NCBI GenBank assembly: GCA_964441885.1
Contig: CAYTVX010000001.1
Location: 6,559 to 44,032, forward strand
DNA from: an uncultured Candidatus Saccharibacteria bacterium
GTDB taxonomy: Bacteria > Patescibacteriota > Minisyncoccia > Phycocordibacterales > CALRHW01
DNA length: 37,474 nt
Reading direction: 5' to 3'
This document shows, in pieces, positions 34,000 through 37,474 of the stretch. The stretch's first letter is position 1, and each line of letters opens with the position of its first letter. Under the pieces are notes generated by a model, which was not told where the DNA came from, searched no databases, and was given only the letters and a program-made list of their open reading frames with translations. The translations under genes were made by a program, and so were the position numbers.

Positions 34000-35421
34000 C
34001 TAAATCACCTCAACCACGAGCATGTTTGTCTTCACACCCTTTTTATTGAAAGGCGCACCAGCGACGACTACTACCTTGTCCCCTTTTTTCGCCAGTTTAT
34101 TTTTTAAACAAAAAGCACGCACAAAATTGAAAGCGTCAGATAAAGTCAGAAATCTTTTTATACAAACAGGATAACAACCAAAGCTCAAACTGAGTTTATT
34201 ACACACCCTTTCGTTGGGTGAAAGAGCCATGATGAGTGAAGTGGGCTTGTGTCGCGACACCATACGCGCAGAAAATCCAGTCTCAGTCAGAGCAAAAATA
34301 AGTTTTGCGTCCACGTCATGAGCAGTATTTACTACAGACTTAGTGATTGAGTTTACAATATCCATTTCACCATTTTCAAGCGCCTCGATATCAAATCTTT
34401 CACAATGATCACGCTCTACTTCTACGGCCACGCGAGACATTACCTCCACAGCTTCTACTGGAAATCTACCCAAAGTCGTCTCCTCTGAAAGCATCACTGC
34501 ATCTGTGCCGTCAAAAATAGCATTAGCAATATCAGACACCTCTGCTCGAGTCGGGACGGGTGCGTTTATCATAGACTCGAGCATTTGTGTCGCAGTAATG
34601 ACTGGCTTACCCGCATCATTACATTTTTTAATAATCATCTTTTGTATCATTGGCACTTTTTCTGCAGGCACTTCAATAGACAGATCTCCGCGCGCCACCA
34701 TAATGCCATCAGACAGCTCAATAATTTTATCAATATTTTCTACAGCTTCAGGTGTCTCTATCTTTGAAATAATTCCAGCGTCGAGCTTTGCTTTTTTCAT
34801 CATTTCTCTTAGCTCAAGCACATCCTCCGGTCGACGCACAAAAGAAAGCGCCATAAAATCAACTTTGTTTTTTACACCAAACTGAAAATCCTTTTTATCT
34901 TTTTCTGTAATCGAGCTGATTTTCAGATACGCACCAGGCAAATTGACCCCACGTCGACCTTTTGTATCTCCACCCACAATCACCTTACACTTCACCTCGC
35001 TTCCTTTTACACTCACAATCTGCAATTTCTTTTTTCCATCATCAAGAAGAACGAAACCTCCCACTTTTACCTCTCTTGGCAGATTTGGATAATTTACATA
35101 TACACGTTTTTCATTACCCACTATTTTTTCAGTAGTCAATGTGAAAAATTCCCCTTCTTTCAATTGGATTCTTTCGGTTGCAAAATCTCCGATGCGGATT
35201 TTTGGACCAGAAAGGTCTTGCAAAATCGCCACATTTTTACACATTTTTTTTGCTAACTTCCTTGTTACGTCTACACGCCTTTGATGCTCAGTATGATCAC
35301 CGTGGGAAAAATTGAGGCGCACTACATCAAGACCAGCAGAAAAAAGCCTCGTCATCATTTCTTCACTTTCTGTCGCCGGACCTATGGTTGCGACGATTTT
35401 TGTTTTTTTCTGAATATTCAT
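34000..35421 (-). CDS. pyk: pyruvate kinase
   Basis: 'KKTKIVATIGPA', 'VRLNFSHG' and 'IMVARGDLSIEVP'. The start was set at the ATG at 35421 (MNIQKK) because the longer track ORF (to 35469) runs into the tRNA gene. Confidence 0.93.
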   Translation of the reverse strand: MNIQKKTKIVATIGPATESEEMMTRLFSAGLDVVRLNFSHGDHTEHQRRVDVTRKLAKKMCKNVAILQDLSGPKIRIGDFATERIQLKEGEFFTLTTEKIVGNEKRVYVNYPNLPREVKVGGFVLLDDGKKKLQIVSVKGSEVKCKVIVGGDTKGRRGVNLPGAYLKISSITEKDKKDFQFGVKNKVDFMALSFVRRPEDVLELREMMKKAKLDAGIISKIETPEAVENIDKIIELSDGIMVARGDLSIEVPAEKVPMIQKMIIKKCNDAGKPVITATQMLESMINAPVPTRAEVSDIANAIFDGTDAVMLSEETTLGRFPVEAVEVMSRVAVEVERDHCERFDIEALENGEMDIVNSITKSVVNTAHDVDAKLIFALTETGFSARMVSRHKPTSLIMALSPNERVCNKLSLSFGCYPVCIKRFLTLSDAFNFVRAFCLKNKLAKKGDKVVVVAGAPFNKKGVKTNMLVVEVI

Positions 35422-35455
35422 ATAAATAAAACGGCGCCAATGAAGGCGCAAAAAT
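35422..35455 (-). terminator. short hairpin plus U-tract immediately 3' of tRNA-Ile and 5' of pyk
   Basis: The minus strand reads gcgcc-ttcatt-ggcgc, then cgttttatttat, then the pyk ATG. The stem is only 5 bp. Confidence 0.35.
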
Positions 35456-35457
35456 AC

Positions 35458-35533
35458 TGGTGCGCGCACTAGGGGTCGAACCTAGGACCTTTCGAGTATC
35501 AGTCGAATGCTCTACCAACTGAGCTATGCGCGC
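35458..35533 (-). tRNA. tRNA-Ile (anticodon GAU), CCA encoded
   Basis: Folded by hand from the minus strand: acceptor GCGCGCA/TGCGCGC, D-arm GCTC-AGTTGGTA-GAGC, anticodon arm TTCGA-CTGATAC-TCGAA, variable loop AGGTC, T-arm CTAGG-TTCGACC-CCTAG, discriminator A and CCA. Confidence 0.9.
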
Positions 35534-35692
35534 AAACAAAACTATATGCCCATAAAATCTAACAAAAATCAGTCGATAATACAAGAACAGAATGTTGTAA
35601 CCTCATAAGTAAGTGCGGGCGCCCAACATCAGTTGTGCGCCCGCGAGGGTACCCTTTCGGGCAATGATTGTAATGCTTGGTTGTGCGACTTT

Positions 35693-35938
35693 TTAGGCCG
35701 CAGACGGAGAAGGATCGGACTCCTCCGACATGCCAGCGTTGCGCTCGATTGCGCGAAGCAGAAGTCGTGCTCGGTCACGAATGGAGAGAGGGGTAACGCT
35801 GCTCTCCTCGCGCAACACATCGAGCACGCGATCACAGCAGATCTTCAGAACGTCGGGGTTCTTCTCCAGATCGTCGAGTCGGTCACGAGCTTCTTCAGCT
35901 CGAATCCGGGATACGGAATCAGTCGTGGACTTCTTCAT
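35693..35938 (-). CDS. 81-aa helical, charged orphan protein on a second GC-rich insert
   Basis: This is the most protein-like of four overlapping frames: amphipathic and charged ('RIRAEEARDRLDDLEKNPDVLK...RDRARLLLRAIERN'), with GC-biased third positions and an AAGGA 8 nt upstream of the ATG. I recognise no family. Confidence 0.45.
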   Translation of the reverse strand: MKKSTTDSVSRIRAEEARDRLDDLEKNPDVLKICCDRVLDVLREESSVTPLSIRDRARLLLRAIERNAGMSEESDPSPSAA

Positions 35939-36070
35939 CTAATTGCATCCTTGCATTGTGTGGTATTTTTATTACCACAAAGGAACTGAAAGGTGTGACA
36001 CAGTGTCCCACCGCAAACCAAAGGGTATCATCATAAAACATCAATGTCAAGTTGATACAAATAACGCACA

Positions 36071-36097
36071 AAGAAAAACCGCACACTTTCGTATGCG
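36071..36097 (-). terminator. intrinsic terminator about 160 nt downstream of the 16S 3' end
   Basis: The minus strand reads cgcatac-GAAA-gtgtgcg(g), followed by tttttcttt. Confidence 0.55.
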
Positions 36098-36252
36098 ATT
36101 TTTCTGATACTATTCTTTATTTTGTTCCGTTCACATCGTCTTTCCGACTGTCATGCTACTTTAAGGATGTTTAGCAATAATCCGTTTCTGAGCTCAATTG
36201 AGGCTCAGAAATCGACTGTAAGTTTTGTCACAAAAGTGACAAAACGATTTTC

Positions 36253-37474
36253 ATTTGAAATACTCCACGAGCAGCTTCCGCTACCCGTGCCTTGTTACGA
36301 CTTACTCCCTGTCATTGAGCTTACCTTAGGACCACATACGTGATATTTCGGGTATTCCCAACTCCCTTGAGTTGACGGGCGGATTGCGATAATTAAACAA
36401 CATTTCGCGTTCCCACGTAGCGTGCGGATTTCCCGCACTACGCGAGTCCAACAATTATGCAAATTGCATAAACTATTGGTTTTGTCCTTCCTAAATTTAT
36501 ATTTTGAACCATTATGAAGAGGGAAGGAAGTGATGCTTCTGAAGTGTTTACCCTCAGCTTGGGGAACGTGACCCATGGTTTTTTTATTGAGGTGCCTACC
36601 TCATACACGATCTTCGTTCTTCCCTCCCTCATAATGATCCAAAATAAAATCTAGTACTACGACGCAGCTGACTTCTCATGATACTTATAAATTGTTTTTA
36701 TATCACGAGATCTCCCAAGGGTCAGTAATAATTCTTTTCCCTGCATCCTATTTGAGATTTTTTTAATACTTCCCCATGACTCACCTAATGGGTCGTATCT
36801 CTCTTTTTTTAAATAGGCTGCTATTTGCTACTAGGATCCTTCACCTGCCAGCCTCACGGCCAACCGATTACCCTTTCGCTACTCTCCAAAAAATGGAGGT
36901 GTTGATTTTAACAACATAGATTTATTACCTGCCTGGCGCTTTTAATTCTGAGTACAAGACTTGAGAACGTATTCACCGCAGTATAGCTGACCTGCGATTA
37001 CTAGCAATTCCAACTTCATGGGGTCGAGTTGCAGCCCCCAATCTGAACTGGGGCGACTTTTCTTACGATTAGCTCAGGGTTACCCCGTCGCAACGCGTTG
37101 TAGTCGCCATTGTATTATGTGTGTAGCCCCGGATATCAGAGGGACATGCTGACCTGGCGTCATCCTCGCCTTCCTCCCCGTATATTATGTCCAAAATTTC
37201 TTTTGGGCACACTATACGGGGCAGTCTCGCCTGACAAATATAACAGGCAACAAGGGTTGCGTTCGTTACCCCACTTAAGGGAACAATTCAAACCACGAAC
37301 TGACGACGGCCATGCATCACCTGTCAACTAGTCTTGCGAGGGCCCCGGTTTCTCGGGGCTTTCACGTTGATTTCTAACCTTGGTAAGGTTCTTCGTTTAT
37401 CGTCGAATTAAACCACATAATCCACTGCTTGTGCAAGTCCCCGTCTATTCCTTTGAGTTTTAACCTTGCGGTCG
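36253..37474 (-). rRNA. rrs: 16S rRNA gene, 3' part (E. coli ~895 to the 3' end), interrupted by an insertion; continues beyond the window
   Basis: Conserved blocks on the minus strand include AAACTCAAAGGAATAGACGG, GTGGTTTAATTCGA, GCATGGCCGTCGTCAG, AACGAACGCAACCC, GGCTACACAC, GGAATTGCTAGTAATCGC, GGTGAATACGTTC, CCGCCCGTCA and GTCGTAACAAGG. Helix 45 has a GGAA loop. The 3' end is approximate. Helix 40 carries an expansion of about 30 nt (37166-37222). Confidence 0.93.
36383..36948 (-). other. ~566-nt intervening sequence (putative intron/IVS) within the 16S gene at E. coli position ~1396/1397
   Basis: The universal CTTGTAC(A/T)CA|CCGCCCGTCA is split: cttgtactca ends at 36949 and ccgcccgtca starts at 36382. 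The insert contains GNRA-capped hairpins and long-range complementary G/A- and C/T-rich arms. No convincing ORF is present. The boundaries are uncertain by a few nt. Confidence 0.75.

Follow-up and report, generated by a model that had tools for sequence, protein, structure and literature searches.

A probable group II (IIC-like) intron without an open reading frame at the position-1400 site of a Patescibacteria 16S rRNA gene

Insertions in the 16S rRNA genes of candidate phyla radiation (CPR) bacteria were surveyed by Tsurumaki et al. (2024), who found 53 group II-like insertions in 380 genes, all of them at position 1400 (PMC11270868). According to the accessible part of that paper, 39 of these insertions carry LAGLIDADG genes, 14 lack an open reading frame (ORF) and none contains a reverse transcriptase; their relation to the LAGLIDADG group II introns of fungi and sulfur bacteria is left open there, and their removal from transcripts is stated with reference to Brown et al. 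(PMC11270868). Here we analyze a 566-nt insert in the 16S rRNA gene of an uncultured Patescibacteria bacterium (assembly GCA_964441885.1). The 3' part of this gene occupies, on the minus strand, the last 1.2 kb of the 37,474-nt stretch of DNA that was studied, which is referred to below as the window. The insert is very probably an ORF-less group II (IIC-like) intron of the known family at position ~1400 of CPR 16S rRNA genes, and its membership in that family is close to certain because of direct sequence homology.

Comparable elements are also known from outside the CPR. Introns that interrupt 16S rRNA genes in giant sulfur bacteria were reportedly described by Salman et al. in PNAS in 2012, and group II introns with LAGLIDADG endonuclease genes in the mitochondria of fungi and green algae are said to have been treated by Toor and Zimmerly in 2002 and by Mullineux et al. 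in 2010. Like the CPR family, these mitochondrial introns combine a group II ribozyme with a LAGLIDADG gene and reside in rRNA genes, several of their families possess a 5' linker, as does the window intron, and their ORF is frequently degenerate (274 of 753; PMC13190283). They differ in their IIA1, IIB1 or IIB2 backbones, their organellar location, their other rRNA insertion sites and their mostly double-motif endonucleases. The rns-1396 introns of Gammaproteobacteria (Thiotrichaceae) are characterized, in the available text, by a IIC backbone, a single-motif endonuclease in domain IV, the lack of an exon-binding site 2 (EBS2) and a 5' terminal linker that occurs in all members as well as in several organellar families of group II introns with LAGLIDADG genes (Liu, Jin and Du 2026, GBE, PMC13190283). 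By description only, the likeness to the CPR element comprises a 16S rRNA site within a few nucleotides, the 5' linker, a single-motif LAGLIDADG gene in domain IV, no reported EBS2 and a putatively IIC-type backbone, whereas the window host belongs to the Patescibacteria. In the portion of this 2026 survey that is available, Thiotrichaceae are the sole bacterial hosts and CPR bacteria are not mentioned (PMC13190283). A preliminary description of the window had pointed to comparable elements in CPR bacteria and, near this position, in giant sulfur bacteria, which the accessible literature bears out (PMC11270868, PMC13190283).

The window intron shares with the CPR insertions designated 16IS9 (Tsurumaki et al., PMC11270868) a CPR host, the same site and the lack of a reverse transcriptase, and ORF-less elements form a minority in both datasets (14 of 53 in the accessible part of that paper versus 9 of 31 extracted inserts and 24 of 88 complete introns, among the matches listed, in this study). 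The 16IS9 elements were detected by means of Rfam models, whereas the window copy remains below the thresholds of these models and probably would fall among the “uncharacterized long ISs” of the accessible text. It further differs from 16IS9 in a rare ~165-nt extension of domain III and in a recognizable ORF remnant. Homologous copies reside in metagenome-assembled genomes (MAGs) named Nomurabacteria, Kaiserbacteria, Paceibacterota and others. This kind of element has thus already been described at this site in CPR bacteria, and the outline of what is known does not change. Beyond the literature consulted are a one-nucleotide shift of the splice site with a matching register of the candidate exon-binding site 1 (EBS1), the domain III extension and a clean footprint of an endonuclease deletion.

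The ends of the insert were fixed by comparison with intron-less congeners. The alignment of the gene with the bacterial small subunit (SSU) rRNA model of Rfam starts at 37474, where the end of contig C1 truncates the gene, and runs to 36949, stopping at ...CUUGUACUCA. The insert then extends from 36948 to 36383, with ACUCA on its 5' side and CCGCCCGUCA on its 3' side. In four congeneric genomes (G001, G003, G004 and G005) CTTGTACTCACCGCCCGTCA is uninterrupted, and the sequence around the site is identical in two of these four and identical or nearly so overall. The first base of the insert is a G and the last one a U, neither of which equals the adjoining exon base. The preliminary description had correctly recognized a 566-nt insertion that splits the decoding-center sequence, while regarding its boundaries as ambiguous by a few nucleotides; because the congeners carry the site uninterrupted, the boundaries are in fact exact and leave no ambiguity of register. 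In Escherichia coli numbering, the site presumably lies between A1398 and C1399. The 3' exon, which consists of CCGCCCGUCA, a shortened helix 44, GUCGUAACAAGG and helix 45, was detected solely as a local match to the archaeal SSU model of Rfam (RF01959, 31.7 bits). The intron has a G+C content of 40% compared to 49% in exon 1. An independent contig of 622 nt assembled from DNA run X1 spans 36353-36974 with 0 mismatches, so that both exon-intron junctions are present in DNA reads. The MAG has a size of 605 kb in 49 contigs and is 92% complete. It yielded a single 16S rRNA match and a single intron copy, and no second intron copy was found elsewhere in this assembly.

The assignment to the group II introns was examined with Rfam models, as the preliminary description had proposed. 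These searches placed the exons, and in the window they gave sub-threshold group II matches and no group I match. The cut-offs are 35 bits for group-II-D1D4-1 (RF01998) and 32 bits for D1D4-3 (RF02001). Among the homologous inserts of five loci (G026, G010, G020, G037 and G023), RF01998 was passed by G026 (53.6 bits), G010 (50.8 bits) and G020 (38.4 bits) and missed by G037 (28.7 bits) and G023 (27.4 bits), while RF02001 was passed by G010 (43.4 bits) and G026 (33.5 bits), with G020 below at 19.8 bits and no match in the G037 and G023 inserts. The two weak group II matches of the window copy are collinear and stand in the same order along the element. A group I intron was rejected, since the group I model (RF00028) matched nothing in window 36000-37474 at E ≤ 10, the 5' exon terminates with A and the last intron base is a U. 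The splice-site expectation raised earlier, with a U-ending exon and a G-ending intron, is a group I rule and does not apply to a group II element. Features consistent with class IIC are the CGC triad of domain V and a compact domain I of 222 nt. The motifs AGAAGUCAGC and GGAAGGAC may resemble those of IIC introns, and there may likewise be a likeness to the Oceanobacillus IIC intron.

To compare the element across genomes, 31 inserts at the site were extracted. Alignment A1 covered the last ~110 nt of 29 members, and the structure tested on it was that of domains V and VI as read from the window sequence. Here, 87% of the cells were paired and 17 of the 21 pairs had changed on both sides; 0 of 500 shuffles were as good, and slid controls reached 30-47%. 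For alignment A2, which comprised the 5' ~320 nt of 27 members, the RNAalifold consensus contained 57 pairs, 41 of them with compensatory changes. Three helices were added to this consensus by hand, resulting in 71 pairs for domains I and II, of which 55 had changed on both sides and which were 89% paired. None of 500 shuffles did as well, and slid controls gave 37-43%. The hand-added helices were the weakest ones, with 57-73% pairing, partly due to misalignment around insertions. At the columns that are ≥90% conserved in the other members, a set that contains a few exon columns, the window copy showed 0 differences in 113 columns of A2 and 0 in 39 columns of A1, which argues against decay of its ribozyme.

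Table 1 Coordinates of the 16S rRNA exons, the predicted intron domains and the neighboring features in the window
Feature	Position	Strand	Basis or context
16S rRNA exon 1, partial	36949..37474	-	RF00177, 422.6 bits, model positions 883-1389; ends ...CUUGUACUCA
Probable group II (IIC-like) intron, 566 nt, ORF-less	36383..36948	-	Intron-less congeners, homologues, group II Rfam matches in homologues
16S rRNA exon 2	36266..36382	-	RF01959 local match (31.7 bits) and by-eye alignment with congeners; 3' end approximate
5' linker, 7 nt, A-rich	36942..36948	-	A2
GUGYG-equivalent motif, AAGCG here	36937..36941	-	Invariant columns of A2
Domain I, basal stem CCAGG/CUUGG around nested stems	36715..36936	-	RNAalifold consensus
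Terminal loop UAGGUGAGUC with candidate EBS1	36778..36787	-	Sequence reading; register versus splice-site class
Domain II hairpin	36674..36710	-	Helix 14
AGAAGUCAGC...GUAGUAC motif, J2/3 and base of domain III	36654..36676	-	Nearly invariant in A2
Domain III stem extension, ~165 nt	36491..36654	-	Fold -65.1 kcal/mol, z = -6.6
GGAAGGACAAAACC motif, 3' side of domain III	36478..36491	-	Conserved
Domain IV, reduced to a small hairpin	36447..36477	-	LAGLIDADG ORF remnant
Domain V	36412..36446	-	Covariation in A1
Domain VI stem	36386..36408	-	Helix 3 covariation, A1
81-aa ORF without Pfam match	35693-35938		Downstream of 16S rRNA gene
tRNA-Ile(GAU)	35458..35533	-	Downstream of 16S rRNA gene, context
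Pyruvate kinase	34000-35469		After tRNA-Ile(GAU)

The predicted domains are listed in Table 1. In relatives, the motif behind the linker is GUGCG or AUGCG; its positions 3-5 (G, Y and G) do not vary in A2, and a covarying basal stem of 5 bp comes directly after it. Helices 1-10 of domain I were 80-100% paired with compensatory changes present, and the candidate EBS1 in one of its terminal loops, UGAGU (36779-36783), is complementary to the last five nucleotides of the 5' exon, ACUCA. Helix 14 of domain II was 99.6% paired, and six of its nine pairs had changed on both sides. The core of the alignment to the Rfam group-II-D1D4-1 model includes the AGAAGUCAGC...GUAGUAC motif. Conservation within the element is highest in the domain V hairpin, which the preliminary description had noticed as a GAAA-capped hairpin. 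It consists of a lower helix of 9 bp, an upper helix of 5 bp, a GAAAU loop and a CGC triad with a G.U pair (36442-36444), and its 3' strand contains an unpaired CG bulge plus a weak U-A pair. In A1, the G.U pair of the triad was present in 29 of 29 sequences and compensatory changes occurred in 10 of the 14 domain V pairs. All seven pairs of helix 3 in domain VI had changed on both sides. The bulged A of this domain, at window position 36390, is intron nucleotide 559 and lies 7 nt before the last intron base; the distal stem is variable, with two pairs that hold in about half of the sequences, and the intron ends with AAU.

In two ORF-less relatives, G023 (L004/L024) and G341 (L048), the lower helix of domain V is broken between CUACGU and GGG by ~50 and ~40 extra nucleotides, respectively, which represents either a nested insertion or an inactivated ribozyme.

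A single-motif LAGLIDADG ORF of 143-209 aa was present in 22 of the 31 extracted inserts, and an ORF with a LAGLIDADG motif in 64 of the 88 complete introns (among the domain V pattern matches listed, see below); the window insert belongs to the nine extracted inserts that have none. The one relative's ORF that was scanned against Pfam matched LAGLIDADG_1 with 75 bits. The two ORFs of 64 and 93 aa that had been noted in the window exist, and the 93-aa frame does extend into the 3' exon, but neither has a Pfam match. As the only similarity is a remnant of 17 residues, a coding role for either frame was rejected. The earlier characterization of the insert as ORF-less and devoid of a homing endonuclease thus holds insofar as there is no intact gene and no Pfam match, and has to be amended insofar as the end of the 64-aa frame is a remnant that corresponds to the start of the LAGLIDADG gene in relatives. 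By BLASTP, 11 of 17 residues of this remnant are identical to the N-terminus of the G037 endonuclease; the remnant partly overlaps a conserved RNA motif, so that the similarity is not purely protein-level evidence. In relatives, GGAAGGACAAAACC overlaps the start of the endonuclease ORF (MGRTKP). In the window, GGAAGGACAAAACC is followed by ~30 nt that align with the first codons of the ORF (~15 codons), and according to DNA comparison with relatives the sequence then jumps at TTGGA to the end of the ORF, whose last codons share bases with the 5' strand of domain V. Since TTGGA flanks the ORF at both ends in relatives, the simplest reading is that a deletion of ~400 nt between these short direct repeats removed the endonuclease gene, a mechanism suggested by the sequence comparison. 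With its endonuclease gene lost, the window copy can no longer home by itself.

Of 401 genomes from the order to which the window host belongs, 33 were found by BLAST to have homologous inserts at the same site or 1 nt away, the source genome G000 among them. E-values reached down to 4e-88 against same-site introns in other families of the order. No homologous insert was found in the six congeners sampled in this order-wide BLAST, nor in seven congeners examined by a separate search. A degenerate domain V pattern of 34 nt matched at least 118 contigs. Among the matches listed, nearly all hosts are MAGs of the Patescibacteria/Parcubacteria group, namely Nomura-, Kaiser-, Taylor-, Vogel-, Giovannoni-, Falkow- and Wolfebacteria, Paceibacterota and others, and many of these contigs are automatically labeled “uncultured Candidatus Saccharibacteria”. 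The closest intron (G065) is 83% identical to the window intron over the 5' 293 nt and 95% over the last 65 nt, and the 16S rRNA exons of its host are 86-91% identical to those of the window. Intron identity does not clearly exceed host identity in this pair, and a claim of horizontal transfer beyond the patchy distribution was therefore not upheld.

One match, L074, is a 3.2-kb contig labeled as uncultured Gammaproteobacteria that carries the intron with an intact endonuclease ORF. It was considered as a link to the family of the sulfur bacteria and discarded as such. The exons of L074 resemble those of CPR bacteria (ACUCA, short helix 44), so that mis-binning of a Patescibacteria contig is probable; in contrast to the window, L074 retains GGAUCACCUCCUUU.

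Among the matches listed, 46 of the 88 complete introns end .../CCGCCCG, with a junction at 1398/1399 or, where the first intron base is a C, undecidable by one nucleotide, and the other 42 have their junction at 1399/1400. The base that follows GAG in the candidate EBS1 was tabulated against the splice-site class for 102 distinct introns (loci L001-L177). It was U in 31 of the 34 scorable introns of the 1398 class and a base other than U in 42 of 44 introns of the 1399 class. This association is the pattern predicted for a shift of the EBS1 register by one base, although it does not amount to statistical proof because the two classes are also two lineages. Under this reading there would be two lineages with junctions one nucleotide apart, A1398/C1399 as in the window and C1399/C1400, with UGAGU as EBS1 in the former and GUGAG plus a non-U base in the latter.

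Two relatives, G010 (L021) and G026 (L023), possess a more canonical group II intron one nucleotide upstream (ACUC/GGGUCGCC(G/A)UGCG..., junction 1397/1398). These introns have the best Rfam scores and a LAGLIDADG ORF of 190-210 aa, and the same 16S rRNA genes also contain group I introns (RF00028, 74 and 29 bits).

The complementary arms gagggagggaag/cttccttccctc pointed out in the preliminary description are real and belong to the long hairpin of the domain III extension, which in addition includes a branched tip (Table 1). Among all loci compared, this extension was common to the window and only one other species, G257 (L038, apparently the same record as L069). Identical blocks such as GAACGAAGAUCGUGUA and GGUCACGUUCCC thereby occur in two hosts of different families. 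The extension may either be an acquired structural module that stabilizes the ribozyme after loss of the protein gene or represent a nested mobile RNA element. Taken jointly, a one-nucleotide “intron sliding” in the decoding center by re-registering of EBS1 and an extension that represents an acquired module or a nested element make up a tentative proposal, which we regard as possible and as somewhat doubtful in its combined form.

If the element functions as a group II intron, the 16S rRNA precursor would be transcribed through it and the ribozyme would fold into domains I-VI. The EBS1 loop UGAGU would pair with the exon end ACUCA, with the 7-nt linker looped out, and domain V would catalyze cleavage at A1398/G following attack by the bulged A of domain VI, which would yield a lariat, or by water in a hydrolytic reaction. 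Hydrolysis is common for IIC introns. Exon ligation would restore ...ACUCACCGCCCGUCA... at the base of helix 44. The TTGGA-repeat deletion of ~400 nt would have cost the element its endonuclease and left a mini domain IV, and the window copy would persist as a ribozyme. We agree with the preliminary description that the insert must be removed for the rRNA to work, and because the intron occupies the only 16S rRNA gene found, the ribozyme must still splice. That it does so and restores the decoding center we consider likely, both splicing and its chemistry being predicted from the sequence.

Public sequencing runs, two of DNA (X1 and X2) and two of RNA (X11 and X15), were compared with the window. 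In the RNA runs the exons were covered at huge depth, and nothing shows that these runs contain the source organism. Intron cover was absent from X11 and X15, in which the presence of the source organism is not demonstrated. The joined form 36382/36949 was found in RNA contigs at depths of 745 and 82, with sides of 21 and 24 nt. Since DNA runs X1 and X2 contain this form as well, and many organisms have the conserved flanks in common, it was rejected as evidence of splicing. In run X2, the exon stretch 36976-37312 was present with 0 letters that differ from the window, a contig (depth 6, side 19 nt) connected the two sides of the intron position, and intron cover was lacking. This pattern hints at a strain that lacks the intron and belongs to the same species or to one very close to it, with the linkage of these pieces left unproven by the short contigs, and thus at a presence/absence polymorphism among very close strains.

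Several observations weigh against an intact and active group II intron in the window. The window copy scores below the Rfam thresholds, with 19.5 versus 35 bits for RF01998 and 14.5 versus 32 bits for RF02001, and the model of domains V and VI (RF00029) had no match to it at E ≤ 10. Its 5' end is not GUGYG but a 7-nt linker with AAGCG behind it. In place of a GNRA tetraloop, domain V has a loop of five bases (GAAAU), and the pair beside the domain V bulge holds in only 7 of 29 sequences. The copy also carries the rare ~165-nt extension of domain III. A LAGLIDADG_1 maturase-like protein was looked for in the 92%-complete assembly and not found, which leaves no candidate for a protein helper, should the ribozyme require one. 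Runs X11 and X15 provided no RNA evidence of splicing for the source organism. Finally, the 16S rRNA gene is truncated at the contig end and a search for 23S rRNA across the assembly found none, and a second, intron-less rRNA copy may still exist elsewhere in the genome.

The last point leads to the view that the insert is a decaying, splicing-dead intron in a non-functional 16S rRNA copy, complemented by an intron-less rRNA operon that was not assembled. The incompleteness and fragmentation of the assembly, the deleted endonuclease gene and Rfam scores that are the weakest of those compared would all fit such a history. A decaying copy would not be expected to retain every one of the 152 family-conserved columns unchanged, however, and the exons are intact and well aligned (422.6 bits), the genome has one intron copy and one 16S rRNA match, and CPR 16S rRNA genes are usually single copy, as stated in the accessible text of the CPR survey (PMC11270868). 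We therefore judge decay to be highly unlikely. Smaller still is the chance that the insert is an intervening sequence whose removal by a host RNase is not followed by ligation, so that the 16S rRNA would be fragmented at the decoding center. Fragmenting intervening sequences are known from bacterial 23S rRNA genes and suspected in CPR bacteria according to the same text (PMC11270868), and no ligated RNA junction was seen for the source strain. Their known sites, however, are 23S rRNA helices and not this one, a cut at A1398/C1399 would split the decoding center, and an RNase substrate would have no need of the full, covarying ribozyme architecture that has been kept here, with its domain V and the branch-site-like A in domain VI. 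Excision with fragmentation, which the preliminary description had offered as an alternative to splicing, found no support.

A degenerate group I intron and an expansion segment retained in the mature 16S rRNA appear even less credible. According to the CPR survey, the most frequent class of rRNA intron in CPR bacteria is group I (PMC11270868), and RF00028 matches do occur elsewhere in the 16S rRNA genes of relatives (L021, L024 and L023). For the window insert, the lack of an RF00028 match and the nature of its ends, as given above, are joined by homologues that match group II models and by the covariation of domains V and VI, which makes a group I origin exceedingly improbable. For a retained expansion segment, to which we assign an equally negligible probability, nothing speaks beyond the lack of direct RNA data for the source strain. 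The insert interrupts the decoding-center strand 1390-1400, which is universally conserved; all four congeners that have a 16S rRNA gene lack it, only 33 of the 401 genomes compared from the order possess it, and in relatives it carries a mobile-element gene.

For annotation, these results mean that the insert should be labeled as a group II intron and not as an unexplained insertion. They also mean that threshold-based Rfam screens under-count the ORF-less members of the CPR position-1400 family, and that primers and probes at 1390-1400 as well as 16S rRNA length filters will mis-handle organisms with this intron. The window copy provides a well-delimited example of endonuclease loss by short-repeat deletion with a minimal domain IV left behind. 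The relatives gathered in this study point to a far larger family than the “Thiotrichaceae only” picture of bacterial hosts in the available portion of the 2026 survey (PMC13190283). If true, the re-registering of EBS1 would provide a natural example of a ribozyme that slid by one nucleotide inside the decoding center.

The Rfam SSU alignment places the 16S rRNA 3' end on CACCUCC at 36892-36904. This placement was dismissed as an alignment artefact, as these nucleotides form part of a short hairpin in domain I, where 51-54 pair with 62-65, and the real 3' exon is 36382-36266. By skipping that exon, the placement shifts the gene end by ~630 nt and constitutes an annotation trap. After helix 45, the 16S rRNA ends with ...GCUCGUGGAGUAUUUCAAAUG (window 36262-36285, minus strand), and no CCUCC anti-Shine-Dalgarno sequence was present at this 3' end in the source genome or in congeners (loci L010, L013, L014 and L016). 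Loss of the anti-Shine-Dalgarno sequence in about half of the Parcubacteria and a shortening of helix 44 in this group have already been reported, as far as the available text shows (bioRxiv 10.1101/2022.01.07.475337). Downstream of the 16S rRNA gene (34000-36260) there is no 23S rRNA gene, and a spacer of ~320 nt comes before the features listed in Table 1. Within exon 1, the window has an insertion of 33 nt, compared to 2 nt in the Rfam SSU model, at position ~1160 (window 37167-37230). It forms a long hairpin (CCCCGUAUAG...UAUACGGGG) that is skipped by RNA contigs of other organisms (joint 37177-37220) and represents a lineage-specific extension of a 16S rRNA helix tip.

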